Positions 15,777-50,317 of a stretch of DNA of 64,000 bases are shown here, piece by piece. This DNA is from Acidihalobacter sp. (GTDB lineage: Bacteria > Pseudomonadota > Gammaproteobacteria > DSM-5130 > Acidihalobacteraceae). Location of the stretch: NCBI GenBank assembly GCA_027013225.1, contig JALUXU010000020.1:239-64238 (forward strand), written 5' to 3'. Under the pieces are notes generated by a model. It saw nothing but the letters and a program-made list of their open reading frames with translations, had not been told where the DNA came from and did no database searches. The translations under genes were made by a program, and so were the position numbers. Each line of letters starts with the position of its first letter. The stretch's first letter is position 1.

Positions 15777-17708
15777 TCAGCTATTTTGCTTGCCGGCATG
15801 CGTTTTGGATGAGTGTTGGCATTTTCCCGCAATGCGTATTACATCTTCGCCTTTCAGGTTTTCACGCGCTTCAAGCTCGGCGCTGAGTTTTTCCAGTGTC
15901 TCGCGGCAGCGGTTGAGAATTTCGCGCGCGCGTTCATGACCTTCTTCGACGAGCGCCTTTATTTCTTCATCGATAGCCTGAGCGGTGGCTTGACTGTAAT
16001 TCCGATCTTCGACGGTCTGCGCAGAGCTAAGATATTGCAGGCGTTGTTCACGTCCCCAAACCACAGGCCCGAGTTTTTCATCCATGCCAAGACGAGCAAC
16101 CATGTTGCGCGCTAACTCTGTGGCTTTTTCCAGATCGTTGGCGGCGCCTGATGAAATACTGCCGAGGATCACTTCTTCAGCGGCCCGACCTCCAAGCAGA
16201 ATGGCGATCTGGTCTTTGATCTCTTCGGTGGTGGACAGGTATTTTTCCGAGACTGGCAACTGTAAGGTGAATCCCAGCGCGCCGATGGTGCGTGGAATGA
16301 TGGTGACTTGATGCACGGGTTCGCCGGTGGGTACCGCCAGCGCGACCACGGTGTGCCCGGACTCATGCACTGCAACACGATGCTTTTCATCGGCTGTGAG
16401 CACCTTTTGCTTGGCTTCTGGGCCGGCGATGATGCGATCGATGGCTGCCTCGAAATCGGCCATGGTCACTTGATCACGATTGGCTCGCAGAGCCTGAATG
16501 GCCGCCTCGTTGCAGACATTTTCAAGGTCGGCGCCAACGAATCCCGGTGTACGCTGGGCGATGATGTGAAGGTTCACGTCGGTGGCGAGCTTCATTTTGC
16601 CGGCATAGAGTTTGAGTATGGCTTCGCGGGTGGCAAGATCCGGCTTGTCCACCAGAATGCGGCGATCGAAACGGCCGGCCCGGAGCAGTGCTTGATCGAG
16701 GATTTCCGGACGGTTGGTGGCCGCCATGACGACGACGCCCGTGGATGGATCGAAGCCATCCATTTCGGTGAGGAGCTGGTTCAGGGTTTGCTCTCTCTCG
16801 TCATGCCCGCCCGTTGCGGGTGCGGCGCCGCGTGCGGCGCCGATAGCGTCGATTTCGTCGATGAAAATAATACACGGAGCCTGTTTGCGCGCCTCCTCGA
16901 AGAGTTCGCGCACCCGCGCCGCGCCCACACCCACGAACATCTCAATGAATTCCGAACCGCTGATCTTGAAAAAAGGCACGCCCGCCTCGCCGGCGACGGC
17001 GCGGGCAAGGAGGGTCTTGCCGGTGCCGGGTGGACCGACGAGCAACACGCCCTTGGGCGAACGGGCGCCGAGTTCCTGGATGCGCTTCGGATCTTTGAGA
17101 AAATCGACTGTTTCCCGTAATTCCTGCTTTACATCTTGATAGCCGGCGACGTCTTCAAAGGTTGTTTTGGGTCCTTGTTCGGGATGGACATGCACATGAT
17201 TGCCGATATTGAGAAAGCCTTTTCCCAGCCCTCCACTCATGCGTTGAGAGAACCATGCCCAGAACAGGAACAAAAGGCCGAACGGGAGTATCCAGTTGAA
17301 GAAGAACTGCGCCAACCAGTCGTTGCCCTTGGGCTTTACGCTGTAGTCAACATGATGGCTGACCAGCAAATCAGCCAATTGTTGATTCCATAAGGGCACC
17401 GTAACGAAATGCACCGGTTGCCCTGTTTTCGGGTTGTTGATCTTGAGCGTCCCGTAAATGGATTGATTGGATATGACGGCTTTTTCAACCTGGTCTTTTT
17501 CTACGTATTGAAGGAACTTGCTGTAGGGGATTGGCTCCACTTGCTGTGCTTGTTTGGCGGGCCAGAGAAAAAAGGAAAGGTAGATGAATAGCAGAAAAAG
17601 AATCAGGGTAAACCAGGGATTTTGCCAAAATTGTTGCTTCGTGGTCTTGTTGATTTCTATTTTCGGCTTCTTTGGACCGAGACCGGTCTGGTGAATTTTC
17701 CCTGCCAT
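15777..17708 (-). CDS. ftsH: ATP-dependent zinc metalloprotease FtsH (paralog)
   Basis: Two TMs, [28 protein letters not shown]. Confidence 0.93.
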
Positions 17709-17914
17709 TGCTTTTCCTCGATTCTGTTTCAAGTCGTTGAAGTCGAGAGGCTTTTATCTCGAGTGTGGATTCTAGCCATGGTTGTCAACAGCCTGGCAAG
17801 GTGTTTCTCAAGGCCAGGTCTACTGGAGTGTTCCGAGCAAACTACTGCCGTTAGGGAGATTGTTGCAATTCATCCGCTCTTCGGCAAGCACAGAGGTTAC
17901 GGGCGAGTCCTTGA

Positions 17915-33504: not shown

Positions 33505-33649
33505 GGTTTGATTGCCGGGACAAAAAGTGGAGCTGTTTAACATAGCGGTAAAGCGATGCTCAGTAAAGCCATGCGTTATGAGCCGCCGAGTGGCTGCTGG
33601 CATGGGAAAGGAAATGGAAGAATGCAGGATCTTAGCGCGTCATGCGTGT

Positions 33650-35980
33650 ATGAGGGCTGTAATTTTTTTTGTCTTGCGGCGATTGCCGATCCTGGCCTTG
33701 CTCCTGATTTTGAGCGCGTCCGCGGCGGCCAACCATCTCGGCGACTCGGCCGATCCGTATCTGCGCATGCACGCCCACGATCCCGTGGACTGGTATCCGT
33801 GGGGGGCGGCCGCCCTGGAAAAGGCGCGGCGCGAACACAAGCTGATTTTCCTGTCCATCGGCTACCTGTCCTGTTACTGGTGCCATGTGGCTGACCGCGA
33901 GCTGTTCTCCGACCCGTCCATCGCCCGCCTGATGAACCGCTGGTTCGTCAACATTCTGGTCGATCGCGAGCAGCGCCCGGATCTGGACCGTGTCTACCAG
34001 CTTGCCGCGGTGGTTATGAACGGCCGCGGCGGCTGGCCGAACAATCTGTTCCTGACGCCCGACCTTAAGCCGTTTTACGTCGGCACCTACTTCTCGCCGC
34101 GGGACGATTCGCTGGGCGCGCCCGCCTTCGTGCCGCTGTTGCGGCGCATCCACCGCGAATGGGGCAGCGATCCCGCGGCGGTAATGGCCCGCGCCGACGC
34201 CGTGGTGGCGAAGATGCGGGCGCAGGGCGGCAGCGCGGGTGATGCGAAAATCCAGCCGCGGTGCTGGCTGCAACAGGCGGTGGCGACCAGCGCCGCGCAT
34301 TTCGACTGGCGCCACGGCGGTCTGCCCGCGGGCGCCGCCCAGGCCAAATTTCCGCGCCCGCCCCTGCTTGCGCTGTGGCTGAGCGCGGCGGTACACGAAC
34401 ACGATCCACGCGCCTCGGCTATGCTGCGCGAGACGCTGGACGCGATGGCCTACGGCGGCATCCACGACGCGCTGGGCGGCGGTTTTCACCGCTACGCCAT
34501 CGATCCCGCCTGGTCATTGCCGCATTTCGAGAAAATGCTCTCCGGCAATGCCCAACTGCTGGCCGTCTATGCCCGCGCCTGGGCCCGCGATCACGACCCC
34601 TTGTATCTCCTAGTGGCCCTTGACACCGCCGCCTGGCTGGCGCGGCGGCTGCAGACGCCGGCGGGCGGTTTCTACGCCGGCATGGCGGCGGCGACGCATG
34701 GCGAAAAAGGCGCCTATTATCTGTGGACGCGGCAGGAAATCGACGCCTTGCTGGGCACGGCGGGTGCCCGGCGCTTTTTCGAGCTCTACGCGCTCACGCC
34801 CATCAGCCACCCCAGCGCCGAGGCCCTGTTCAGCGGCGAGATCCCGGGCGTACTGCGCGTGCGCGAGGCGCTGGAAAGCCTGGGTGGGCGGCAAACGGCG
34901 CGGCGCATCGCGGCGCTGGCCCCGGAACGCGAACGGCTGCTCGCCGCCCGCCAGAAACGGCCCAGGCCGCAGATAGACCGGCTGATGCCGGTCGGCCTCA
35001 ACGGACTGGCCATAGGCGCATTCGCCCAGGCCGGGCTGGCCCTGCACCGGCCACAGCTGACCGGTATCGCCGCACGGGCGGCGGAGCGGATCTGGCGCGT
35101 GGCCTGGCAGGCGCGCTCCCGCACCCTGGCTCACGCGCTGCTGGCCGGGCGTCCCGACGGCGCCGGTCTGTTGGCCGACTACGCCCTGTTCGGTAACGGC
35201 CTGCTCGATTTGTACCACAATGACCGCCAGCCGCGTTGGCTGCACCGCGCGCGGCGGCTGGGCGATGCGCTCCTCGCCCGTTTCCGCCGCCCGGACGGCG
35301 CGTTGATGGAAACGCGGGGCGATGCCAGTCTCCCGGTCGCGCCGCGGGCGACGGGGGACATCCATCGCCCATCTGCTTTGTCGGCGGCCATCGTGCTGCT
35401 GCTGCGCCTGGGCGAACTCACCCATGACCCCCGTTACACGCGCGCCGCCCGCGAGGCGCTGCGAAACGCCGCGCCCGCGATCGCCGCCGCTCCCGAGCGC
35501 TGGGGCTATCTGCTCGCCCGGCTCAACGATCTGCCGTCACCTGTGCGCGAGGCCCTGGCCGCGCCGACGGGCGTCGAGGCGGCAGGCGGCGGCTTCCACA
35601 TCGCCACCAGCGCCGAGGCGGTCTCGGTGCTTGCCGAACGCGCGCCGGTCGATGGCCGCCCCGGCCTCGTCCTGCGCCTGCGCATCGCCCCGGGCTATCA
35701 CATCAACGCCGATCCGGCCTCCTTGCCCTACCTCATCCCCACCCAGGTGCGCCTCGAAAACCTGACGCCCGTGCGCGTCCATTACCCTGAAGGGCGATGG
35801 ATACACCCGGCCATCTCGCGCGAGGGTTTGCGCGTCTATACCGGCGAGGCGACGATCCGCGTCGTCTTGCCGCCCGGGGCAACGCCGGCCCGCGCCGTGC
35901 GCGGCACGCTGAGGATTCAGGCATGCAAGGCGCAAGTCTGCCTGCCGCCGGCCAGCCTGTCGTTTCGGGTGGGTAAGTAA
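33650..35980 (+). CDS. Exported YyaL/DUF255 thioredoxin-glycosidase-like protein with C-terminal DsbD-N-like domain
   Basis: PVDWYPWG, SCYWCH, DREQRPDLD, GGWP, GGFHRYA, PHFEKML, QACKAQVCLPP; start codon uncertain. Confidence 0.8.
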   Translation: MRAVIFFVLRRLPILALLLILSASAAANHLGDSADPYLRMHAHDPVDWYPWGAAALEKARREHKLIFLSIGYLSCYWCHVADRELFSDPSIARLMNRWFVNILVDREQRPDLDRVYQLAAVVMNGRGGWPNNLFLTPDLKPFYVGTYFSPRDDSLGAPAFVPLLRRIHREWGSDPAAVMARADAVVAKMRAQGGSAGDAKIQPRCWLQQAVATSAAHFDWRHGGLPAGAAQAKFPRPPLLALWLSAAVHEHDPRASAMLRETLDAMAYGGIHDALGGGFHRYAIDPAWSLPHFEKMLSGNAQLLAVYARAWARDHDPLYLLVALDTAAWLARRLQTPAGGFYAGMAAATHGEKGAYYLWTRQEIDALLGTAGARRFFELYALTPISHPSAEALFSGEIPGVLRVREALESLGGRQTARRIAALAPERERLLAARQKRPRPQIDRLMPVGLNGLAIGAFAQAGLALHRPQLTGIAARAAERIWRVAWQARSRTLAHALLAGRPDGAGLLADYALFGNGLLDLYHNDRQPRWLHRARRLGDALLARFRRPDGALMETRGDASLPVAPRATGDIHRPSALSAAIVLLLRLGELTHDPRYTRAAREALRNAAPAIAAAPERWGYLLARLNDLPSPVREALAAPTGVEAAGGGFHIATSAEAVSVLAERAPVDGRPGLVLRLRIAPGYHINADPASLPYLIPTQVRLENLTPVRVHYPEGRWIHPAISREGLRVYTGEATIRVVLPPGATPARAVRGTLRIQACKAQVCLPPASLSFRVGK

Positions 35981-35987
35981 ACCTGGT

Positions 35988-36752
35988 TTAGCCGCGAAGC
36001 TGGCGGTAAACGCTCTCGGCGATGCGCAGCAGCGCCGCGCGGTCGAGGCGGCCGGCCACGGCATAGGCCATGCCGCCGTCTATCCAGTAAAAAACCTCGA
36101 CCCCGTCCCGGCGCACGAAGCGAAAGGCGGTACGTTGCACGGGCCGGCGCGGCCAGGTGATATAGACGGTGATGCGTCGCCGCGCCGCATTCTGATACAT
36201 GAACTGCGCGGCGGGCCCGGCGCTGCCGGGCAGCAGGCTGCCGCCCATCAGGTGATAACCGTAGGCGGAAAGATCGGGCGCCTGCAGTGTATGGCCTAGA
36301 CGCCGCGACAGCCAGTGCATCAGCTCGGCCTTTTCGGCGGCGCCGACCATGACCGGATGCCGCGCTTCCGGCGCGTACACGGCGTAGGCCAGTGCTGCCT
36401 CCTGCGGCAGCCGGGGCGCCGCCGTGGCCAGGGGCACGGGTCCCGAACCCAGGGCAAGAAACCAGCCCAGGGCGATGCCCAGCCCGAAACTGGCCACGCC
36501 CGCCGCCAGCGCCGCCCGCCGACGCGGCCGCGGCGGCGCAACGCGCAGGCGGTCGGGTATCGGCTCGGCCAGCACGCCGTCGAAAGCCTGATGCAGGGCG
36601 CGGCGATGACGGCGGTAGGCGGCGGCGCGCGCGGCGAGCGCCGGATCCTGCTCTATCCGCGCCTCGATCTTGGCTTGCCGCGCCGGATCCAGACGCCCGT
36701 CCACCCAGGCCTGCAAGGTATCGTCGTCCAACACCCGGCGCTGCCCGCTCAT
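35988..36752 (-). CDS. Transmembrane anti-sigma factor
   Basis: LQAWVDGRL, TM, WLSRRLG...APDLS...GGSLLP...AQFMY. Confidence 0.88.
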   Translation of the reverse strand: MSGQRRVLDDDTLQAWVDGRLDPARQAKIEARIEQDPALAARAAAYRRHRRALHQAFDGVLAEPIPDRLRVAPPRPRRRAALAAGVASFGLGIALGWFLALGSGPVPLATAAPRLPQEAALAYAVYAPEARHPVMVGAAEKAELMHWLSRRLGHTLQAPDLSAYGYHLMGGSLLPGSAGPAAQFMYQNAARRRITVYITWPRRPVQRTAFRFVRRDGVEVFYWIDGGMAYAVAGRLDRAALLRIAESVYRQLRG

Positions 36753-37237
36753 CGGCCCTTCTCCGTTGGCGGCAGCTCGCCTTCCATCGCCCGGCGCAGT
36801 TTCTCTCGCCCGCGAGACAGGCGCGACATCACCGTGCCTCGAGGAATGCCGAGGATGGCGGCGGCTTGGGCATAGCTGAAATCCTCCAGCCCCACCAGCA
36901 GCACGACCTCACGAAACTCGGGCGGCAACTGCTGCAAGGCCCGTTGCAGATCGCGCACCATGAGCTGCTCTTCCTGCGTCGCCGCCACAGGCGCCAGATA
37001 AGCCTCATTCCATTCCAGCATGGGCCGTTCGGCACGGCGCTGGTTGACATAGAGGTTGTGCATCAGGGTGAAGAGCCAGGCGCGAAGATCACTGCCGCGC
37101 CGCCACAGGGAAAACTTGCGCAGCGCCCGTTCCAGGGTGTCCTGCACCAGATCGTCGGCGCGGTCGGGATCTCCCGCCAGGGCGCGGGCGTATCGGCGCA
37201 AGCGGGGTATGTGCGCTTCGAGCGCGGCGGCATCCAT
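36749..37237 (-). CDS. ECF RNA polymerase sigma factor
   Basis: ADDLVQDTLERA, WLFTLMHN, GTVMSRLSRGR. Confidence 0.93.
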   Translation of the reverse strand: MDAAALEAHIPRLRRYARALAGDPDRADDLVQDTLERALRKFSLWRRGSDLRAWLFTLMHNLYVNQRRAERPMLEWNEAYLAPVAATQEEQLMVRDLQRALQQLPPEFREVVLLVGLEDFSYAQAAAILGIPRGTVMSRLSRGREKLRRAMEGELPPTEKGR

Positions 37238-37245
37238 GCGGCAGC

Positions 37246-37274
37246 AAAAACGGGCGCGCCTCAGCGCGCCCGTT
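37246..37274 (-). terminator. Intrinsic terminator-like hairpin between the SnoaL gene and the ECF sigma gene
   Basis: AACGGGCGCGC-TGAG-GCGCGCCCGTT followed by TTT on the minus strand. Confidence 0.6.
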
Positions 37275-37280
37275 CATGGA

Positions 37281-37739
37281 TCAATAGCCGCCTGAGGCCA
37301 TTTCGTGCTTGTGCATGAGTTTCAGCAGGTGCGGGTCGATCTGCCAGATCTCGTCAACCAGCACGCCTTGCCGGAAGGTCATGACGTAGCGCACCGGGAT
37401 CGGTTTCATGCCCTTAAACACAACGTCCGCCGTGACTGTGGCGCCGGCAGGGTTGGCCGCCACCTTCATGTCCCAGATTTTGATCCTGAGTGGCCCGTTG
37501 GCCTTGGCGAACTTGTGCCACACTTGGCGGATCGCCGGCGTGCCGCGGTAATCGCCGTTCAGTGGGCCGCCGACCCACTGGAACACCGCGGCGGGCGAAT
37601 AGTCGGCCATGATCGCCGGCACATCGCCGCGGGCGATAGCGTGCAGATGCGCGCGCGCCTCGTGTGCGGGGTTCGCAAACGCCAGGGCAGGCACGGCGGC
37701 AGCGGTGAAAGCGAGCAACTTCAAAGCGGATTTGCGCAT
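37281..37739 (-). CDS. Exported SnoaL/NTF2-like protein
   Basis: Signal peptide; MADYSPAAVFQWVGGPL...DEIWQID. Confidence 0.75.
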   Translation of the reverse strand: MRKSALKLLAFTAAAVPALAFANPAHEARAHLHAIARGDVPAIMADYSPAAVFQWVGGPLNGDYRGTPAIRQVWHKFAKANGPLRIKIWDMKVAANPAGATVTADVVFKGMKPIPVRYVMTFRQGVLVDEIWQIDPHLLKLMHKHEMASGGY

Positions 37740-38874: not shown

Positions 38875-40338
38875 TCAGCTCTGGGGATCGAGCGACAGGA
38901 CTCCGGCAGTGCGGTCGAGGTCTTCGGCGATCTCGCGGAACTGCTCCAGCGCCGCCTCCAGATCCTCGACGATCTCCTGGGCGATGACCTCCGGCGGCGG
39001 CAGGTTTTCGGTCTCGTTCAGGGATTCGTCCCTGAGCCAGAAGATGTCCAGGCTGGCCTTGTCACGGGCCACCAATTCTTCGTAGTCGTAGGCGCGCCAC
39101 CGGCCTTGCGGGTTGTCCTCGCGCCAGGTGGCCTTGCGCTCGTGGCGCTTCTCGGGCTTGTAGAGCGCGACGAATTCGTCCAGATTCTCGCGCCTGAGCG
39201 GATGGGTCTTGAGGGTGAAGTGCTTGTTGGTGCGCAGGTCGTAGATCCAGAGTTTCTTGGTCCAGGGTTTCTCCGAGGCCGGTTTCTTGTCGAAGAACAG
39301 CACGTTGTCCGGCACCACCACGGCGGCGCGGCCGTTGACCTTGAGCAGGGTCTTGATGTGCTGCACGAAGTTGAGCTGCTTATTGGAGGTGGTGGTCCAG
39401 AAATCGTCGCGCTCGACCGTGTCCTTTTCCTTGCTGACCTTGCCTTCCTCGCCGACGATGGTGGTGCTGCTCTTCTTGCCGAAGGGCGGATTGGTGAGCA
39501 CCAGGTTGAAGTGCTCGCCCGGGTCGGCGGCCAGCGAATCGCCCACCTCGATGGGCTCATACTCCTGGCTGCCGATGCCGTGCAGCAGCAGGTTCATGGT
39601 GCACAGGCGCGCCGTGGCCTGCACCAGCTCCCAGCCCTTGAAGGTCTTTTCCTTGAGGAACTTGCGTTCCGTCTTGGTCATGTGAGGATGGTTCTTCACC
39701 ACATAGTCGTGCGCGGCGAGCAGAAAGCCGCCGGTGCCGCAGGCCGGGTCGCAGACCGTCTCGCCGGGTTCGGGCTGCATCACATCCACGATGGCCTGAA
39801 TCAGCGGACGCGGGGTGAAATACTGTCCGGCGCCGGACTTGGTGTCCTGGGCGTTCTTCTCCAGCAGGCCCTCGTAGGCGTCGCCCTTCACGTCGGCGCT
39901 CAGCGACGACCAGTTTTCCTTGTCGATGAGATCCACGATCAGCCGCCGCAGCTTGGCCGGGTCCTGACAAATTCATCAGGAATGAATTTGGACGCACGGA
40001 GTGCGCCCGCAGGGTGAGCGCCAGGGATGGCGCGAATCAAATTTGTTCTGCGCCTTGTTGAAGATCAGTCCCAGCAGGCCCTTGTCCCGGCCCAGCGTCT
40101 CCAGGGTGTGACGATAGTGATCGAACAGCGCGTCGCCGTCCTTGTTGATCAGGTTCTGCCAGCCGTAACCTGCGGGAACCGGACTCGGTTGCTTGTAGGG
40201 CGGCCGCGAGCGCTCGTCGGCCATCTTCAGAAACAGCAGATAGGTCAGCTGCTCGACGTAGTCGTCGTAGGACATGCCGTCGTCGCGCAGCACGTTGCAG
40301 TAGTTCCAGAGTTTCTGGACGATGTTGGCAGGAGTCAC
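38875..40338 (-). pseudogene. hsdM: Type I R-M methyltransferase, interrupted by a 72-bp insertion and apparently internally deleted
   Basis: IVQKLWNYC N-terminus; GQYFTPR, DPACGTGGF, NPPF; in-frame stops inside the insert at 39967-40038. Confidence 0.9.
39967..40038 (+). mobile_element. 72-bp four-hairpin insertion element (copy A)
   Basis: Removing it restores KAQNKF-QDPAKLRRL in hsdM. Stems: CAAATTCAT/ATGAATTTG, CGCAC/GTGCG, CCC/GGG, GCGCC/GGCGC. Confidence 0.8.
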
Positions 40339-40691
40339 GTCTTCCCCTCTTTGGCCGGCAAGATCAGGCGCAGTCGTGTGGCGAGCGCAGGGATGTCGTC
40401 TGTCGCTGTGTGATACAGGAGTGCATGATCGATCCGCCCGTATTCGTGGGCCAGGATATTCCGTATCCCGATGATTTCACGCCAGGCAAGTTCGGGGTGC
40501 GCATCACGGAAGACTTGAGACAGTGTGCGAGCGGTTTCACCAACCAGTTCCACATCCCGCTCGATCGCTCGCTGAAGCAATCGATTGTCGTGGAATGCCG
40601 CCTCGTCGTGCTCTTTGAGCAGATCCGCGATCTCTTCACAGATTTGCAGCATGTCCCAAAGATACGCCGCATCGCGTTCATCAGGCTGCAT
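40335..40691 (-). CDS. HepT/DUF86 HEPN ribonuclease toxin
   Basis: RNILAHEY = RX4HXY motif; AYLWDML N-terminus. Confidence 0.88.
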   Translation of the reverse strand: MQPDERDAAYLWDMLQICEEIADLLKEHDEAAFHDNRLLQRAIERDVELVGETARTLSQVFRDAHPELAWREIIGIRNILAHEYGRIDHALLYHTATDDIPALATRLRLILPAKEGKT

Positions 40692-41016
40692 ACAACGTCT
40701 CCAGATCCCGCATGATGGTCCGCCGACGATAGGGATTTTCGAGCACGACGGGGGTGACGAGATCGACCCGGCGTCCGCCGAACAGCCGCGAGAATTCATC
40801 CGATATCGTGACCATTTTCCCCAGCGATGGCGCCTTCCCCTCCTCGAACTCCACCATCAGGTCGATGTCGCTGTCCGGCCTCAGCTCGCCGCGCGCCGCC
40901 GAGCCGAACAGCGACAGGCGGCGGATGTCATATTTTCTCGCCAATGCCTGTAACGCCGCCCGAGGCACCTCGAGGCCCTCGGCGATCACGATCATGTCAT
41001 CGGTCTGCCCGTTCAT
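40681..41016 (-). CDS. MntA-like minimal nucleotidyltransferase antitoxin
   Basis: FGSAARGELRPDSDID = GSX10DXD; overlaps the HepT start. Confidence 0.88.
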   Translation of the reverse strand: MNGQTDDMIVIAEGLEVPRAALQALARKYDIRRLSLFGSAARGELRPDSDIDLMVEFEEGKAPSLGKMVTISDEFSRLFGGRRVDLVTPVVLENPYRRRTIMRDLETLYAA

Positions 41017-41024
41017 CTTCAGCC

Positions 41025-41440
41025 TCAGGATACCACCGCCGTCGTGGACTCGCTGGCGGCATCCGCATCGGTCGGGCCCGCGCCCTCATGGCTCGGAACC
41101 AACCGGCCCGAGAAGGCGGCGGCGAGGATGGACTGGCGCAGGCGCTCGGCGCGCTGGAGGTTGGCCTCAACTTGGGCCTCAGTTTCGTGGAGGATGGAGA
41201 GGCGGCGGTCGACTTCGGCGACGATGCGGTGTTGTTCGGCTAGTGGTGGTAGTGGCAATCCGATTGAGCGGAAACGGCCCAAGCTTATTTTCAGCTGAGC
41301 AACGCCTTTCGTTATTCCTAAATATTGCTTGTGAACCAGTTCCGATTCAATTGCATACATGAAGAATCGTCCGGAAAGGACGCCCTTTGAAAGCCTTAAC
41401 TTTATACAGTCCGCAGTAATGATTGCTTTTGGTTTGCCCC
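41025..41440 (-). pseudogene. hsdS: 3' fragment of type I R-M specificity subunit
   Basis: End of an AT-rich TRD followed by LPLPPLAEQHRIVAEVDRRLS...LRQSILAAAFSGRLV; no start codon. Confidence 0.85.
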
Positions 41441-42132
41441 GCGCACCTTGGGGTCGTGCAGGGGCTTGACGGCTTGCTGGATGAGCTTTTCGCGGGCGGC
41501 GGCGAGGGCTTGGTCGGGGATGGGCCGGTCGTCGTCGGGGGCGAGGCCGAGATCGGCCCGGTCCTGTTCGATGTGGCGGTCGGGGTCGAGGGCCTCGACG
41601 ATGCGATGGCTGAGGTCCTTGACGCCGAGGCCCCCGGTCAGCTCGCGCACCTACTGGTCGTCTTCGGCGCTCATGCGGTGTTCCATGCGGGCCAGGCGGC
41701 CGGCGAGGGAGGTGAGCACGTCTTCGTCCGTCGAGCCGAAGGCGACGGCCTGCATGAGCTTGTCGAAGGCGACGGTGGGCTTGCGCTCCATGGGACGGGA
41801 GTCGGTCTTGTCCTGCTCGCAGACGCCGACGGCATCGACGATGACGAAATGGTCCTTGACCTTGGCGTCCGGGGTGACGCTCTGCAGGTCGTCGGGCTTG
41901 ATCACGCGCACGCCGCGGCCCTTCATCTGCTCGAAGAATGCACGGGACTTGACCGCGCGCAGGAACATGACCACCTCCACCGCCTTGATGTCGGTGCCGG
42001 TGGCGATCATGTCCACGGTGACGGCGATCCTGGGCATGGGGCTGGTGCGGAACTCCTGGATCAAGTCCCGGGGTTTCTTGCCGGTGGTGCGGTAGGTGAT
42101 CTTCTGGGCGAAGTCGTTGCCCTTGGCGAATT

Positions 42133-42206
42133 GTCGATGGCGCCTCCTGTGCCATCGCCCTTCGGGCGCACTACGTGCGACCAAATCGGCTGTCCTGCCG
42201 ATTTGT
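42133..42206 (-). mobile_element. 74-bp four-hairpin insertion element (copy B)
   Basis: Removing it restores VREEFAKGNDFAQKITY. Stems: CAAATCGGC/GCCGATTTG, CGCAC/GTGCG, CCC/GGG, CGATGGC/GCCATCG. Confidence 0.8.
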
Positions 42207-42755
42207 CCTCGCGCACGATCTCGACGATGTTCTCGGCGTGCGCATCGTCCTTGGCGAAGATGAGGGTCTTGGGCACCCATTCGCGGCCGGGGAAGATCTC
42301 GGTGAACAGCTTGTCGCGGTAGGTCTGGATGATGGTGCGGATCTGGTCGGGGGCGACCACGTCGCGGTCGAGCTGGTTGGGGTCGTATGCGAACTCGTCG
42401 TCGAGCTGTTCCCAGCGTTTCTTGCGGGTGTCGCGCTCCATGACCTGCACCGCGTAGCCGGATTCCACCTTGCTGCCCTGCTCGCTGATGGCGGTGCGGA
42501 TGCGATAGACGTCGTAGTTGACGTTGACGCCGTCGGCCACGGCCATCTCGTGGTTGTATTCCATCACCAGGTTCTGGTGGAAGAAGCCGAAGGTCTGCTT
42601 GGACGGCGTTGCGGTGAGGCCGATGAGGTAGGCGTCAAAGTATTCGAGCACCTGCGCCCAGAGGTTGTAGATGGAGCGGTGGCATTCGTCGGTGACGATG
42701 ATGTCGAAGGTTTCGATGGGAATATTCGGGTTGTATGCAATCGGCTCCGGTCTGC

Positions 42756-42860
42756 GCGGGAGGCCGCCAGCCGGCGTTGCGGGACTCGCTGCGCTGCTCA
42801 TTGCGCCATCCGGCAATTGCGCTGCCCGCTTGCTTTGCGCCTTGGCTGGCGGCCTCCTGC
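42756..42860. repeat. Palindromic MITE/REP-like element inserted in frame in hsdR
   Basis: Inverted repeats GCGGGAGGCCGCCAGCC (42756-42772) and GGCTGGCGGCCTCCTGC (42844-42860), 16/17 match; encodes a low-complexity extra peptide. Confidence 0.65.
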
Positions 42861-43867
42861 TGTGCCCGGTGGTATCCATCAGGGCGCCCAGTTGATCAAC
42901 CGAGATTTCTTCCAGATCTTCCTCCAGCTCGCGGCCCTTGAGCATGGCGTACAGACGCTGGATGGTGCCGATGCAGACCCGCGCGGTGGTGTCGAGGGTG
43001 TTCGATTGCAGGCGCTGGACGATGTATTCCTCGGTGAACTTGAAGTTGTTGTAGGGCGAGCGGTACTGCTGGAACTCCTTGAGGGTCTGATCGGCGAGGT
43101 TGCCGCGGTCCACCAGGAACAGCACCCGGCGCGCCCCGGCGAACTTGATCAGCCGGTAGATGAAGCTGATGGCGGTGAAGGTCTTGCCCGAGCCGGTGGC
43201 CATCTGGATGAGCGCCCGCGGGCGGTTCTCGCGCAGGGACTGCTCCAGGTTGCGGATGGCCGTGATCTGGGCGGGCCAGAGGCCTTCCTCGATCAGCGGC
43301 GGCATCTGCTGCAGGCGGGCGAGGAAGGTGCCATGTCGGTTTGCGTAAGCGGGCGGCTGCTCGGCGACCTGATCAAATGGTACCGTTTCCAGCCACGCGG
43401 CGAGGGTCTCGGGCCGGTGGAAGGCGAAGATGGGTCTGGATCGGGGCTCCGGGTCAAGGCCGTTGGTGAAGCGCGTCTCGGCGCCGGTGGACTGATAGGA
43501 GAACGGCAGCGGGTTGCGCCAGGCCGGCAGGTTGTCCGGCAGGCCGGTGGTGTACTTGGCCGCCTGCACCTCCACACCGGTGAGCGTGGCGCCCGCCTTC
43601 TTGGCCTCGATGACCCCGGCGGCCTTGCCATCGATGTACAAGCAGGTAGTCCGCGAAGCCGTGGCCGGCCTTGAGGGGAAACTCGCGTATGGCGATGCCG
43701 CGGGCGGCGTGGATGTTGGTGGCGCCGGCGTCGAAGATCGCCCAACCGGCCTGCTTGAGCAGGCGGTCTATGCTTTCTCTGGCCTGATCTTCCAATGCGC
43801 TGGATGCCATCCGGCTGCCTCCCTTTTGCGTGATGCTCCCCGACCCAAACCGATCCAAATGCGGGGC

Positions 43868-43899
43868 TTGACCTTGCACCTTGCTACAGACTTTATACT
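43868..43899 (+). promoter_or_regulatory. MerR-type long-spacer promoter for the copper operon
   Basis: TTGACC-N20-TATACT upstream of the cueR-like gene. Confidence 0.6.
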
Positions 43900-43941: not shown

Positions 43942-44351
43942 ATGGATAAACTTGTGACCATCGGCGCCCTGGCGCGCACCGAACAGCTGGCGCCGGAGAC
44001 GCTGCGCTATTACGAGCGGGTGGGGCTGATTGAGCCGGCCCGCCGCACCGCATCGAACTATCGTTTGTACGGGCCGGAGGCTCGGCGGCGGTTGCGCTTC
44101 ATCCGCCGCGCGCAGGCGCTGGGCTTCTCGCTGGCCGAGATCGGGGAGCTGCTTTCTCTGCACGCCCGGCCCGAAGCGGACATGGGCGAGGTCAAGGCCC
44201 TGGCTGATGAAAAGATCGCCGACATCGAGCGCAAGATTCGTGATCTCGAACGCATGAAGGCGGGGCTCGAAGGCTTGGCCGAGCAATGCCCGGGCCACGG
44301 TTCCACCGCCGAATGCCCCATCCTGGGGGCGCTGCTGAGCGAGGATGCCTG

Positions 44352-44352
<1 letters not shown>
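43942..44352 (+). CDS. cueR: MerR-family metal-responsive regulator, CueR-like
   Basis: TLRYYE HTH; [13 protein letters not shown]; lacks the extra Cys used by divalent-metal MerRs (DMGEV). Confidence 0.75.
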
Positions 44353-46820
<2,468 letters not shown>

Positions 46821-46853
46821 TTTGATCATCCATTCCAACAAGGAGGCATCACC

Positions 46854-47252
46854 ATGAGCAAAATCGTATTTTCCGTTACCAGTCCCATTGATTACGACGC
46901 CACCATCGAGCGCGTCACCGAGGCGCTCAAGAGCGAGGGCTTCGGCGTGCTCACCACCATCGACGTGGCCGCCACGCTGAAGAACAAGCTCGGCGTGGAG
47001 CACAAGCCTTACGTCATTCTCGGCGCCTGCAATCCGAACTACGCCCATCAGGCGCTGCAGGCGGTGCCGGACATCGGCGCGCTGCTGCCCTGCAACGTGG
47101 TGGTGCGCGAGGAGGACGACGGCCGCGTCAGCGTGGTGTTCATGGATCCCGAGTCGGTGCTGGGCCTTATCGCCGATCCCACGGTGGAAAAAGTCGGCCA
47201 TGAAGTGGCCGAGAAGCTGCACCGCGTGGCCGAAGCCGTGGCCAAGGCCTGA
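46854..47252 (+). CDS. DUF302 protein
   Basis: GFGVLTTIDV, ILGACNP, LLPCNVVV. Confidence 0.9.
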   Translation: MSKIVFSVTSPIDYDATIERVTEALKSEGFGVLTTIDVAATLKNKLGVEHKPYVILGACNPNYAHQALQAVPDIGALLPCNVVVREEDDGRVSVVFMDPESVLGLIADPTVEKVGHEVAEKLHRVAEAVAKA

Positions 47253-47279
47253 ATATTCAACACACAACAGGAGAGAAAT

Positions 47280-47486
47280 ATGAGCGACATCAAACTCAAA
47301 GTCACCGGCATGACCTGCGAACACTGTGTGCGCGCCGTCACCAAGGCGCTCGAAAGCGTGCCCGGCGTGGAAAAGGCCGAAGTCACCTTGAAGCCGGGCG
47401 GCGCGGTGGTACACGGCGAGGCCGACCCCGAGCAGTTGATCGCAGCAGTACGCGAAGAAGGCTACGACGCCGAAGTGCAGGACTAG
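47280..47486 (+). CDS. copZ: Copper chaperone (HMA)
   Basis: VTGMTCEHC, 68 aa. Confidence 0.88.
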   Translation: MSDIKLKVTGMTCEHCVRAVTKALESVPGVEKAEVTLKPGGAVVHGEADPEQLIAAVREEGYDAEVQD

Positions 47487-47489
47487 GTC

Positions 47490-47729
47490 ATGGCCGAGGT
47501 TTTGCTTTACACCAGCCCCGGCTGCCCGGACTGCGCGGCCGTCAGGCGCTATCTCGAAGCGCACGGCATCACTTTCGAGGAACGCGACGTGACCGCGCCG
47601 GGCGTGGCCGAGGAGGCCAAATCCCGCTACGGCGTGCGCGTCGCGCCCATCACCGTGATCGGCGATAAGGTGCTGTACGGCACCTTCGCTGAGCAAAAAC
47701 CGCAGCTCGACGCCGCGTTCGGCGGCTGA
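47490..47729 (+). CDS. Glutaredoxin-like protein
   Basis: YTSPGCPDC, VAP cis-Pro. Confidence 0.85.
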   Translation: MAEVLLYTSPGCPDCAAVRRYLEAHGITFEERDVTAPGVAEEAKSRYGVRVAPITVIGDKVLYGTFAEQKPQLDAAFGG

Positions 47730-47750
47730 AGGCTGTCTCACACGAGGAAA

Positions 47751-48446
47751 ATGGAAATGAACAGGAAAGTTTTCACACGCCTTGCCCTGGCGGCCGCCTG
47801 CGCCGCCCTCGTTGTTCCGCCCGCGTTCGCTCAGGGCATGATGGGTGGCGGCCAAGGTGGCCCCGGCATGATGGGTGGCGGCCAAGGTGGCCCCGGCATG
47901 ATGGGTACGATCAACAATCGCCCCGTGGCCCCCGGCTGGGGCGGTGCCACCTGGAATTATGCGCAGGTGAAACGCTATCTGGCTGCTTCGGAGGCGGACG
48001 GCCGCGCCGAGGGCAAGCGCGTGGTGTTCCAGGGGCATGCTGTGACCATCGACATGGTGGCGGTGCAACCCGGGCATCCCGACACCACCTTCGAGGTGCA
48101 TGGCATCACCAATCCGACTCTGGTGGTGCCGGCCGGCGCGACCGTGCATCTCAATCTTGTCAACATGGACTACGGCAACAACATGGAACACGGCGTGATC
48201 ATCACCGCCGCGCCGCCGCCCTATCCGCGCTATCTAATGCAGACCATGGCCCAGTACGGCCCGCCTCTGGCCGGCATCTCGCCGCCGATCCCGTGGCGCA
48301 GCAAGAAAGACCTGAATCAATCGCTGTTCGCCGCGGCCGGTACGACTTTCACCGCCCCGAGCCGACCCGGTGTCTACTGGTACGTATGCCAAACGCCTGA
48401 GCATGCCGAGAAGGGCATGTACGGCAAGTTCGTGGTGACGGGATGA
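47751..48446 (+). CDS. Rusticyanin/sulfocyanin-like type-1 blue copper protein
   Basis: Signal peptide; FEVHGITNPTLVVPAGATV; ligands H(MEHG), C-H-M in YVCQTPEHAEKGMYG. Confidence 0.82.
   Translation: MEMNRKVFTRLALAAACAALVVPPAFAQGMMGGGQGGPGMMGGGQGGPGMMGTINNRPVAPGWGGATWNYAQVKRYLAASEADGRAEGKRVVFQGHAVTIDMVAVQPGHPDTTFEVHGITNPTLVVPAGATVHLNLVNMDYGNNMEHGVIITAAPPPYPRYLMQTMAQYGPPLAGISPPIPWRSKKDLNQSLFAAAGTTFTAPSRPGVYWYVCQTPEHAEKGMYGKFVVTG
47835..47906 (+). repeat. 30-bp tandem repeat (2.4 copies) encoding GMMGGGQGGP
   Basis: GGCATGATGGGTGGCGGCCAAGGTGGCCCC x2 plus GGCATGATGGGT. Confidence 0.95.
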
Positions 48447-48456
48447 GGAGCCGCAT

Positions 48457-48717
48457 ATGCCTTATGGATACGGCCCTGGCGGTTTCGGTGGCATGTGGTG
48501 GGGGCCTGTCGTGGGTTTCCTGATCATGCTGGCGGTGCTGGCCGCTGTGGTGTGGGTGATCGTCGCAGTGGCGCGCTCGGCCTGGAAGGGACGAGAGGAA
48601 CCTCCACCACCATTGCCGCGCCGCGACAGCGCGCTGGAAGCGTTGCGCGAACGCTACGCCCGCGGCGAGATCGACCGCGACACCTACGAACGCATGCGGC
48701 GCGACCTTGAGCGCTGA
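48457..48717 (+). CDS. SHOCT-domain small membrane protein
   Basis: TM then ALEALRERYARGEIDRDTYERMR. Confidence 0.88.
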   Translation: MPYGYGPGGFGGMWWGPVVGFLIMLAVLAAVVWVIVAVARSAWKGREEPPPPLPRRDSALEALRERYARGEIDRDTYERMRRDLER

Positions 48718-48727
48718 AAGGTATCTC

Positions 48728-50317
48728 ATGAAACGAAACGAAGACATAAACCATCCGCGCCGACGCCTGCTGCTGCACGGCCTTGCCGCTGGCGGCGCGC
48801 TGGCCCTCGGGCTGGGGCCACGCGCCGCATCAGCGGGCGGCACACAAAGCGCGCCTGCCGCCGGCGCGTTCTTGCGCTCGCTGCCGGTGCCGGCGCCGCT
48901 GCATGGCCGGGCTGATGCAAGGGGCGTGCTCCACTATGCCTTGCGTGCCGGGGGCGGCCTCAGCGAGCTGATCGCCGGCGTACGCTCGCCCACCTGGGGC
49001 TACAACGGCGCGCTGCTCGGCCCCACCTTGCGGATACCGCGCGGCAAACCGGTGCAGATGCATGTCAGCAACGGACTGGGGGTGCCCACCACCCTGCATT
49101 GGCACGGCGCCCAGGTGCCGGGGAAGGTGGACGGCGGGCCGCATAACACCATCGCGCCGGGTGCCGTGTGGACGCCGGCTTTCACCCTGGACCAGCCGGC
49201 CGGCACCCTCTGGTATCACCCTCATCCGGATACCTACACCGGCCCGCAGGTGTATGCCGGGCTGGGCGGCTTTTTGTTCATCGATGATGGCGAGGATGCG
49301 CGGCTCGGCTTGCCGCATACCTATGGCGTGGACGATCTGCCTCTGGCGATTCAGGACCGGCGCCTGGACGCCGACGGGCATCTTGCCTACATGGACCGGA
49401 TGCCGGACATGATGGGCATGAAAGGCGACCGTTTCCTGGTCAACGGCGTCGAGCAGCCCCATGCCGAGGTGCCGGCCGGCTGGCTGCGCCTGCGCCTGCT
49501 CAACGCATCGAACGCACGAATCTACAATCTGGCCTTCGCTGACGGGCGTGAATTTCATGTGATTGCCGGCGATGCGGGTCTGCTGGAGCAGCCGGTGCCG
49601 CTACGCAGTCTGCTGCTCGCACCGGCCGAACGTGCCGAGATCGTGGTCGATCTGCGTCGCGAGCAGGGGCGCTCACTGGTGCTGCGCAGCGATTCCGGCG
49701 CCGTGGTGCCCGCGCTGTACCGCATGCCCATGGCCGCCGACGCCTTCGACCATGGCCGCTTCGATCTGCTGCAGTTGCGCGTCGGCCCGCCCTCGGGGCG
49801 GCTGGCGCGGCTGCTTGACCGCCTGGGCAGCGTGCCGGCCCTGAGCACGGACGGTCCCACCCGGGACTTCAGCCTTGAGGGCATGATGCAAGGCGGCATG
49901 ATGAACATGATGCGGGCGCGTTTCGGCATGCGCGGCCAGGACGGCCCCGGCGGCATGAGCATGGGCATCGGCGGCTACGACCTGTTCGCCATCAATGGCC
50001 GTTACATGCGCATGGACGTGATCGATGCGCACATGCCGCTGGGAAAAACCGCGTTATGGCGGGTGCGCAACGTCAGCACCATGGCGCATCCTTTCCACAT
50101 GCACGGCGCCTCGTTCTTGATCCGTAGCCGCAACGGCCGGCCGCCGCCCGCCCACGAGCGTAGCTGGAAAGATGTGGTACTGGTAAGGCGGGGCGAAACC
50201 GTGGAGTTGCTGATTCCCTTTCGCCATCGCGCGGGGGACGAGCATCCCTACATGTATCACTGCCATATCCTGGAACACGAAGACAACGGCATGATGGGGC
50301 AGTTCACGGTGAGCTGA
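48728..50317 (+). CDS. Multicopper oxidase (CueO-like), Tat-exported
   Basis: RRRLL Tat; HWHG, WYHPH, HPFHMHG, HCHILEHEDNGMM; Met-rich loop. Confidence 0.93.
   Translation: MKRNEDINHPRRRLLLHGLAAGGALALGLGPRAASAGGTQSAPAAGAFLRSLPVPAPLHGRADARGVLHYALRAGGGLSELIAGVRSPTWGYNGALLGPTLRIPRGKPVQMHVSNGLGVPTTLHWHGAQVPGKVDGGPHNTIAPGAVWTPAFTLDQPAGTLWYHPHPDTYTGPQVYAGLGGFLFIDDGEDARLGLPHTYGVDDLPLAIQDRRLDADGHLAYMDRMPDMMGMKGDRFLVNGVEQPHAEVPAGWLRLRLLNASNARIYNLAFADGREFHVIAGDAGLLEQPVPLRSLLLAPAERAEIVVDLRREQGRSLVLRSDSGAVVPALYRMPMAADAFDHGRFDLLQLRVGPPSGRLARLLDRLGSVPALSTDGPTRDFSLEGMMQGGMMNMMRARFGMRGQDGPGGMSMGIGGYDLFAINGRYMRMDVIDAHMPLGKTALWRVRNVSTMAHPFHMHGASFLIRSRNGRPPPAHERSWKDVVLVRRGETVELLIPFRHRAGDEHPYMYHCHILEHEDNGMMGQFTVS

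Follow-up and report, generated by a model that had tools for sequence, protein, structure and literature searches.

A rusticyanin-fold cupredoxin with a Met/Gly-rich tail encoded in a copper-resistance operon of Acidihalobacter sp.

The window analysed here is a 64-kb stretch of an Acidihalobacter sp. contig (JALUXU010000020.1), and this study concerns a secreted type-1 cupredoxin encoded near the end of a copper-resistance (cop) operon on its plus strand. A first-pass annotation had described the protein as rusticyanin-like and had proposed that it handles copper, either as a periplasmic sink or as an electron shuttle to a neighbouring multicopper oxidase. The cupredoxin has the fold and the copper ligands of rusticyanin, but it belongs to a separate, large family that is widespread across many phyla and apparently uncharacterised.

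The operon and its cupredoxin

The interval from 47751 to 50317 holds three co-directional plus-strand genes, which form the tail of an operon of eight genes on that strand. In their order these are:

43942..44352, plus strand: MerR-family metal-responsive regulator, CueR-like (PF09278, PF13411, PF00376)
44352..46820, plus strand: CopA, Cu(I)-exporting P1B-type ATPase (TIGR01511, 597 bits against a cut-off of 397; E1-E2_ATPase)
46854..47252, plus strand: DUF302 protein (PF03625, 97.8 bits)
47280..47486, plus strand: CopZ, cytoplasmic copper chaperone (NF047957 CopZ_AFE_1862, 108 bits against a cut-off of 85; HMA domain)
47490..47729, plus strand: small glutaredoxin-like protein with a CPDC motif (PF00462, 54.7 bits)
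47757..48446 (alternative ATG at 47751), plus strand: secreted rusticyanin-fold type-1 cupredoxin (ligands, fold and family comparison)
48457..48717, plus strand: single-pass membrane protein with a SHOCT domain (PF09851, 34.7 bits)
48728..50317 (alternative TTG at 48707), plus strand: CueO-like multicopper oxidase, exported by the twin-arginine (Tat) route (Cu-oxidase_3, Cu-oxidase_2)

The genes are separated by 4-34 nucleotides (nt) or else overlap, the start of copA overlapping the stop of the merR-like gene by 1 nt. A near-identical metagenome contig of 74 kb (L081) has the same gene calls over the operon, and the starts of copA and of the oxidase gene were taken from these calls. CopZ, the glutaredoxin-like protein, the SHOCT protein and the Tat-exported oxidase lie around the cupredoxin just as the first-pass annotation had placed them. 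The regulator reaches 120.5 bits against the CueR model TIGR02044, under the cut-off of 147.4, with the ZntR and MerR models close behind, and CopA carries two N-terminal HMA domains. The oxidase scores 453 bits against the CueO model NF008205, under the cut-off of 525, and its sequence reveals an RRRLLL twin-arginine signal and a Met-rich insert (GMMQGGMMNMMRARFGMRGQDGPGGMSMG). The N-terminus of the SHOCT protein is rich in Gly, Tyr and Met; it is predicted from the positive-inside rule to face outward, which would place the SHOCT domain in the cytoplasm.

The open reading frame (ORF) of the cupredoxin, 47751-48446, encodes 231 amino acids, and the second ATG, at 47757, is the likelier start because it lies 8 nt after GAGGA and is the start called in L081. 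The motifs FEVH, NPTL and PAGATV, by which the likeness to rusticyanin was first recognised, are all present, and the type-1 ligands are H147, C213, H218 and M223 (231-residue numbering), spaced C-x4-H-x4-M. These residues align with His85, Cys138, His143 and Met148 of rusticyanin (phmmer, 1a3z, E 5e-21), the only strong match of the cupredoxin among PDB sequences. An AlphaFold model from an 18-sequence family alignment, with a mean predicted local distance difference test score (pLDDT) of 82.6, is disordered over residues 1-55 and mostly above a pLDDT of 90 in the remainder. The gene is divided as follows:

47757..47831, plus strand: putative Sec-type signal peptide MNRKVFTRLALAAACAALVVPPAFA, with predicted cleavage before QG, read from the sequence
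47832..47945, plus strand: disordered Met/Gly-rich tail (QGMMGGGQGGPGMMGGGQGGPGMMGT...), with 6 Met and 17 Gly in 38 residues and pLDDT <50
47835..47906, plus strand: perfect 30-bp tandem repeat of 2.4 copies, coding for GMMGGGQGGP (Tandem Repeats Finder, 100% matches)
47946..48443, plus strand: folded cupredoxin domain, residues 66-231, with pLDDT mostly >90

An A-x-A-Q junction is kept across the family alignment. In L081 the repeat is exactly one 30-bp unit shorter and otherwise identical; the length of the tail differs between strains. Within the folded domain are the helix/strand extension that rusticyanin typically has at its N-terminus and, following the first His ligand, an internal loop that contains Met. 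In Foldseek comparisons the model superimposes on rusticyanin structures with template-modelling (TM) scores of 0.88-0.90 (target-normalised), root-mean-square deviations of 1.8-2.6 A and 34-37% identity, and the next cupredoxins, the auracyanins, reach a TM score of at most 0.74.

The Met-rich character of the tail and the loop extends to the family. The density of Met in the N-terminal tail is 0.09-0.11 and that of His 0.005-0.012, and the tail of canonical rusticyanins is only about 14 residues long. In the loop after the first His ligand the density of Met is 0.10 in the family against 0.047 in canonical rusticyanins, and in the rest of the protein 0.034 against 0.019. The type-1 ligands are retained in essentially every intact family member, the 21 exceptions being truncated, frameshifted or spacing variants.

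Upstream of the operon, one promoter-like element was spotted by eye:

43868..43899, plus strand: TTGACC-N20-TATACT, 43 nt upstream of the merR-like gene

This is the sole match to the pattern in the window, the pattern having been picked after the sequence was viewed. MerR-family promoters typically have a long spacer, and the spacing of this element resembles theirs, which is suggestive only. The region upstream of the operon is not conserved in an Acidihalobacter metagenome-assembled genome (MAG), and a sigma-70 scan detected no promoter. A minus-strand ORF of 1377 amino acids (44058-48191), antisense to the genes from merR through the cupredoxin, was rejected as an artefact of high guanine-plus-cytosine (GC) content; it overlaps five plus-strand genes supported by Pfam.

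Relationship to rusticyanin

The label rusticyanin describes the fold correctly but misstates the orthology. Against TIGR03095, the rusticyanin equivalog model, the cupredoxin scores 93.4 bits, under the cut-off of 146.7. In a neighbour-joining tree of 165 representatives (a distance method, with 200 bootstraps), the canonical rusticyanins form a clade of their own, apart from all 158 other representatives in 200/200 bootstraps, and the window cupredoxin falls outside this clade, among the other representatives. The original description as rusticyanin-like thus stands for the fold and the ligands, and not for membership of the rusticyanin orthologue group. The protein does not cluster with generic plastocyanin/azurin or CopC-type proteins.

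Residues diagnostic of rusticyanin point the same way. Canonical proteins read N-T-N...F/A-G/E-H-Ser86, the window cupredoxin and its close relatives N-M-D-x-G-x-x-M-E-H-Gly, and the wider family N-x-D...M-x-H-G/N. The position of Ser86 is taken by Gly148 in the window protein, by Ser in 27/31 canonical rusticyanins, and mostly by Gly or Asn in the family, and Phe83 of rusticyanin is replaced by Met in the window cupredoxin. Ser86, beside His85, has been linked with stability in acid and with a high potential (Hall et al. 1998, cited through PMC10654088). A group of sequences sharing the NMD motif was considered as a subfamily and dropped, as it forms no clean clade (0/200 bootstraps).

Rusticyanin, the iron-oxidation carrier of Acidithiobacillus ferrooxidans (PDB 1RCY, 1A3Z, 2CAK), has a redox potential of about +680 mV and is stable and functional at pH 2. 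It and the window cupredoxin are both secreted and have in common the fold with its N-terminal extension and the His/Cys/His/Met ligands, whereas the Met/Gly-rich tail of about 40 residues and the more Met-rich internal loop are additions of the window family. They differ also in genomic setting, rusticyanin being encoded in a cyc2-cyc1-cox-rus operon and the window cupredoxin in a cop operon. The canonical rusticyanin gene of Acidihalobacter aeolianus was located and ends the cluster cyc2-cyc1-coxBACD-ctaA-ctaB-rus, an arrangement that has been published (PMC10654088). With Cyc2, Cyc1, CoxB, CoxA, CoxC, CtaA and CtaB of A. aeolianus as tblastn queries, nothing was found in the 64-kb window, in agreement with the earlier remark that cyc2 and cox genes are missing from the vicinity.

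Homologues are annotated as 'rusticyanin', 'sulfocyanin-like copper-binding protein' or 'hypothetical'. The closest named homologue, 76% identical, is from the iron oxidiser Acidihalobacter ferrooxydans, and P0001 is a 96% relative. SoxE (PF06525) is the sole Pfam family over its cut-off for the cupredoxin (24.1 against 21 bits; PF00127 yields 19.3 bits, under its cut-off of 21.2), which accounts for the 'sulfocyanin-like' naming used by NCBI. Sulfocyanin serves archaea as a respiratory carrier and is associated with terminal oxidases; against its model (SoxE, TIGR03094) the cupredoxin scores 25.4 bits, under the cut-off of 168.4.

The first-pass annotation had also seen in the locus a possible hint at the origin of rusticyanin. 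Under midpoint rooting the canonical rusticyanins, which sit on a long branch, are nested at a depth of three nodes; with the cupredoxin of plasmid pMOL30 as outgroup, the root falls within the non-rusticyanin family in 165/200 bootstraps and beside rusticyanin in 32-35/200. Both rootings are compatible with rusticyanin as a derived offshoot of the window family. The trees are poorly resolved, however, with internal branches that are short, a single outgroup that is distant and distances as the basis of tree building, so the hint stands as a lead and not as a result.

Gene context across genomes and the proposed role

In a profile search of 1.84 billion representatives, 1062 hits reached E<=1e-3, and with the stricter threshold of E<=1e-10 there were 374. 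When one genome per species was scanned, 101 loci emerged, 80 of which were analysed in two ways, by tblastn with the window proteins as queries (E<=1e-5, 8-kb flanks) and, in an unbiased manner, by clustering of the called genes within 5 kb, supplemented by Pfam. The neighbours of the cupredoxin genes are:

CopA: 39/80 loci by tblastn, 37/80 by clustering and Pfam
DUF302: 21/80 loci by tblastn, 17/80 by clustering and Pfam
SHOCT: 20/80 loci by tblastn, 22/80 by clustering and Pfam
Multicopper oxidase: 15/80 loci by tblastn, 12/80 by clustering and Pfam
MerR: 6/80 loci by tblastn
CopZ: 6/80 loci by tblastn
CusS-type kinase: 19/80 loci by clustering and Pfam
CusR: 14/80 loci by clustering and Pfam
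LTXXQ/Metal_resist protein: 12/80 loci by clustering and Pfam
CsoR: 11/80 loci by clustering and Pfam

At least one clear copper gene lies within 5-8 kb of the cupredoxin gene at 54/80 loci, and cox or cta genes were found at 0/80. Of the partners it is the Cu(I) exporter CopA that is most constant, not the oxidase. Copper regulators of three unrelated types (CueR/MerR-like, CusRS and CsoR) are found near family genes, and the order and direction of the genes vary with the host. Thiomonas and related MAGs have CusS< CusR< LTXXQ> cupredoxin> CopA> DUF302> MCO> (MCO, multicopper oxidase), Acidocella has CopA< CsoR> MCO> SHOCT> DUF302> cupredoxin>, Campylobacterales have CopA> SHOCT> cupredoxin> CsoR>, and Nitrosotalea and Bacillota have CopA> cupredoxin>. 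In Planctomycetota the oxidase is followed directly by the cupredoxin (MCO> cupredoxin>), and on a plasmid of Burkholderia thailandensis a SHOCT-cupredoxin pair lies near an oxidase, a YHS protein and a copper ATPase.

The hosts include Acidiphilium, Acidocella, Paraburkholderia, Burkholderia, Jiella, Desulfosporosinus, Clostridium, Alicyclobacillus, Mesoaciditoga and the archaeon Nitrosotalea; among the anaerobes are Desulfosporosinus, Clostridium and Desulfocapsaceae. Iron oxidation is not known from most of the named genera, and several of them are strictly anaerobic. The family is associated with copper genes under three types of regulator, in bacteria as well as archaea, and this association therefore constitutes strong circumstantial evidence of a role in copper homeostasis. 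The copper-handling role proposed at the outset is strongly supported by this conserved context, and since the linkage recurs across phyla it is not attributable to chance. At one locus from a Deinococci MAG (L039), two copies of the cupredoxin occur together with CopA and SHOCT, and a Cyc1-like hit lies about 4 kb downstream.

A Met/Gly/Tyr motif resembling GYGPGMMGG recurs at these loci. It is found at the N-terminal end, predicted to face outward, of most neighbouring SHOCT proteins, which is rich in MMG and GYG, and, in long arrays, within the LTXXQ/CpxP-like proteins of betaproteobacterial loci; a Met/Gly motif of the same type occurs in the tail of the cupredoxin and in the insert of the window oxidase. 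The motif was seen at loci L005-L012, L016, L023, L026, L031, L039, L046, L048, L078 and others. Met-rich Cu(I) sites are known from CueO, CusF, PcoE and Ctr1, and by analogy with these the motif may be a shared Cu(I)-binding module.

A copper role for the cupredoxin is strongly supported by the gene context. As to its form, we consider it rather probable that the protein is a periplasmic copper-tolerance cupredoxin which works in the manner of CopI on an acid-stable rusticyanin scaffold. The operon would be co-transcribed from a promoter regulated by the MerR/CueR-type protein, presumably on copper induction, and would yield CopA, CopZ, the cupredoxin and the CueO-like cuprous oxidase. CopA would expel Cu(I) into the periplasm, where the flexible Met/Gly tail and the internal Met-rich loop would capture it through thioether sulfurs. 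Such binding would persist at low pH, unlike that by His. The type-1 His-Cys-His-Met centre would then take up the metal or take an electron from it, turning Cu(I) into the less toxic Cu(II), and would do so alongside the oxidase or in its place when oxygen is scarce. Taken on its own, this redox step is somewhat less likely than not, and is the more tentative part of the scheme; binding of Cu(I) by the Met-rich segments is likewise inferred. His is protonated at low pH, and for this reason the replacement of His by Met fits the many hosts from acid environments.

CopI is the nearest counterpart in function. This periplasmic cupredoxin combines a His-Cys-His-Met centre with a His-rich tail at the N-terminus and an internal His/Met loop, which resistance requires. 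It has been proposed to bind Cu(I) on the flexible loop and oxidise it at the cupredoxin centre, and CopI matters mainly under low oxygen (PMC13308877). CopI of Rubrivivax gelatinosus and its homologues in Cupriavidus metallidurans (pMOL30), Vibrio and Pseudomonas are, like the window cupredoxin, single-domain proteins encoded in a copper-resistance cluster and spaced C-x4-H-x4-M. All three modules of CopI, namely the type-1 centre, the N-terminal metal-binding tail and the internal Met-containing loop, are present in the window cupredoxin with Met/Gly chemistry instead of His. Encoding in a copper-resistance cluster is matched by the window operon and by the related loci with copper genes, and the importance of CopI at low oxygen fits the occurrence of the window family in anaerobes.

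The two are nevertheless different families. The pMOL30 cupredoxin encoded after copD, which by the published gene order we take to be CopI, matches PF00127 (43 bits) and PF13473 (34 bits), and the models matched by the window protein are PF06525 and that of rusticyanin. In a BLASTP comparison of these two cupredoxins only 35 C-terminal residues align, and the His/Met loop of the pMOL30 protein occupies the same topological place as the Met loop of the window protein. CopI lacks the N-terminal extension of rusticyanin, and its accessory segments are His- or His/Met-rich where those of the window family are Met/Gly-rich with virtually no His. The window family and CopI thus have the same design in different families, with Met for His. 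On pMOL30 (L084, 25316-26411) the cupredoxin gene directly adjoins a gene annotated 'cytochrome c', presumably copJ by the published gene order; a haem partner of a copper-resistance cupredoxin could bear on what re-oxidises such proteins.

The idea that such proteins handle copper is not new in kind, because it has precedents in CopI, which is an established cupredoxin of copper tolerance (PMC13308877), in proposals for rusticyanin and AcoP, and in Sulfobacillus. A contribution of rusticyanin and AcoP to copper resistance has already been proposed (Navarro 2016, as related in PMC7463520, PMC6803676 and PMC5328820). AcoP, an acidophile cupredoxin, is copper-induced and is a proposed determinant of copper resistance (PMC7463520); by its description it is set apart from the window protein, being encoded inside the rus operon and interacting with cytochrome c and oxidase (PMC7463520, PMC4059628). 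In Sulfobacillus thermotolerans Kr1 a rusticyanin gene lies beside copZ, copA and csoR in a plasmid-like metal-resistance region, and a role in metal resistance was suggested (PMC6803676); this case was reported as a curiosity of a single genome. A literature search in an incomplete library found no papers describing the Met-rich, cop-linked family as such. What would be added to these precedents is a CopI-like copper-tolerance cupredoxin on a rusticyanin scaffold, whose copper role is well supported by context.

Several observations weigh against this interpretation. The scheme requires an electron acceptor for the reduced cupredoxin. No clear MerR-type dyad operator was found in a search upstream of the operon, where only short GC palindromes occur further upstream. 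No RNA runs containing this sequence were found, the sequence occurring only in hydrothermal-vent metagenomes. At 26/80 loci no copper gene is recognisable within 5-8 kb, several of these contigs being short. Finally, on plasmid pTA2.1 of Paraburkholderia sp. A1BS-2L (L003, 7821-11217) a family member with a Met-rich tail, annotated by Pfam, stands in the order DUF4396, cupredoxin, a 95-residue protein, dihaem cytochrome c and a Cyc2-like protein of 485 residues. The last is 27% identical to Cyc2 of A. aeolianus (E 4e-35) and is the only Cyc2-like gene in the 80 loci; some family members may accordingly be ordinary respiratory electron carriers.

Among the alternatives, the one that survives best is a passive periplasmic copper buffer or metallochaperone, which would sequester copper or hand it to the oxidase or an efflux partner with no redox chemistry, as do CusF, CopC or PcoE, or as in the loading of CutO assisted by CutF. 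We regard this as possible but on the whole unlikely. It draws on the same copper-gene context, and the disordered Met-rich segments fit it. However, essentially every intact member retains the type-1 redox centre in full, which is more than a sink requires, and one such site per protein offers little buffering capacity; CopC and CusF have no known Cys ligand. Other systems lend it support: CopI has been termed a 'modular copper buffer' (PMC13308877), and rusticyanin and AcoP are reported to protect copper-sensitive E. coli in a manner dependent on the H-C-H-M motif, which was read as copper binding (Navarro 2016, as related in PMC7463520 and PMC6803676). Maturation of Rhodobacter CutO is described as dependent on the CopA pathway and CutF (PMC8456105).

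The shuttle to the oxidase proposed in the first-pass annotation fares worse. A dedicated carrier would pass electrons from Cu(I) or another donor to the type-1 site of the adjacent multicopper oxidase, and it is true that the two genes are in the same operon, one gene apart, that the oxidase directly precedes the cupredoxin in Planctomycetota, and that an oxidase is near at 12-15/80 loci. Yet about 80% of the neighbourhoods lack an oxidase, and by tblastn CopA is the commoner partner (39/80 against 15/80). The family is present in strict anaerobes, where an O2-reducing partner makes little sense, and with a high potential like that of rusticyanin, electron transfer to the type-1 site of the oxidase would probably be uphill. 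Enzymes of the CueO type, moreover, act on Cu(I) directly, oxidising it at a Met-rich site of their own. We therefore hold this function to be improbable.

That the protein is a true rusticyanin paralogue of Fe(II) oxidation or another respiratory chain, placed beside copper genes by chance or co-transfer, is very improbable: the rusticyanin fold and ligands, the closest named homologue from an iron oxidiser and the pairing with cytochrome c and a Cyc2-like gene on the Paraburkholderia plasmid speak for it, but the protein lies outside the canonical clade and under the TIGR03095 cut-off, Ser86 and the N-T-N motif are not conserved, cyc2, cyc1 and cox are missing from the window and cox and cta from the 80 loci, and the named hosts belong mostly to genera not known for iron oxidation.

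If the protein is a CopI-like copper-tolerance cupredoxin, the family would be a second independent example of the CopI principle and would show how copper is captured in the periplasm where His fails at low pH, by Met/Gly tails on a scaffold that withstands acid. The unstudied SHOCT and DUF302 partners would also be marked out as components of copper homeostasis. KEGG-style 'rus' calls serve as markers of Fe(II) oxidation in metagenomes, and the expression of 'rus' reported from an anoxic pit-lake layer is a puzzling case (PMC7563247); were most such hits copper-defence genes, the potential for iron oxidation would be over-called. A concrete hypothesis of how rusticyanin arose in evolution follows as well, which in its full form is speculative and rather doubtful. 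In it, the cop-linked, Met-rich cupredoxins of rusticyanin fold would be ancient and widespread detoxifiers of Cu(I), independent of O2 and of multicopper oxidases, and rusticyanin a late, specialised offshoot without the Met modules, a copper-defence protein recruited into acidophilic iron respiration; the GMMGG-type module, shared by the cupredoxin, the oxidase and the SHOCT and LTXXQ proteins, would make up a common, pH-insensitive Cu(I) relay.

Surroundings of the operon

The GC content of the operon is 65-71%, against 52-60% for most of the window, an excess of about 10 points, and the cop genes share 73-78% identity with those of a syntenic operon of the Acidihalobacter MAG. The ten largest other ORFs of the window are housekeeping genes. 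An FtsH-like gene (15777-17732) is closest to those of vent Sedimenticola MAGs (69-76% identity), and on the strength of this gene Acidihalobacter was rejected as the host. No tRNA or integrase was seen. Horizontal acquisition of the operon is plausible, and the cop operon may be an acquired island in a vent gammaproteobacterium related to Sedimenticola, a relatedness read from the FtsH-like gene, a single gene.

Directly upstream of the cop operon, at 38875-43641, lies a type I restriction-modification system that looks degraded, and it is in the same state in L081. Its parts are:

42061-43641 plus 41651-42280: split hsdR
38875-39936 and 39976-40338: hsdM in two ORFs
41025-41360: hsdS fragment of 111 amino acids
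40335-41016: HepT/MNT toxin-antitoxin pair within the degraded system

A second block of high GC content (70-72%), at 33512-37739, encodes a DUF255/thioredoxin protein of 822 amino acids with a DsbD_N-like C-terminus, together with three small minus-strand genes, and could be another acquired module related to redox or metals.

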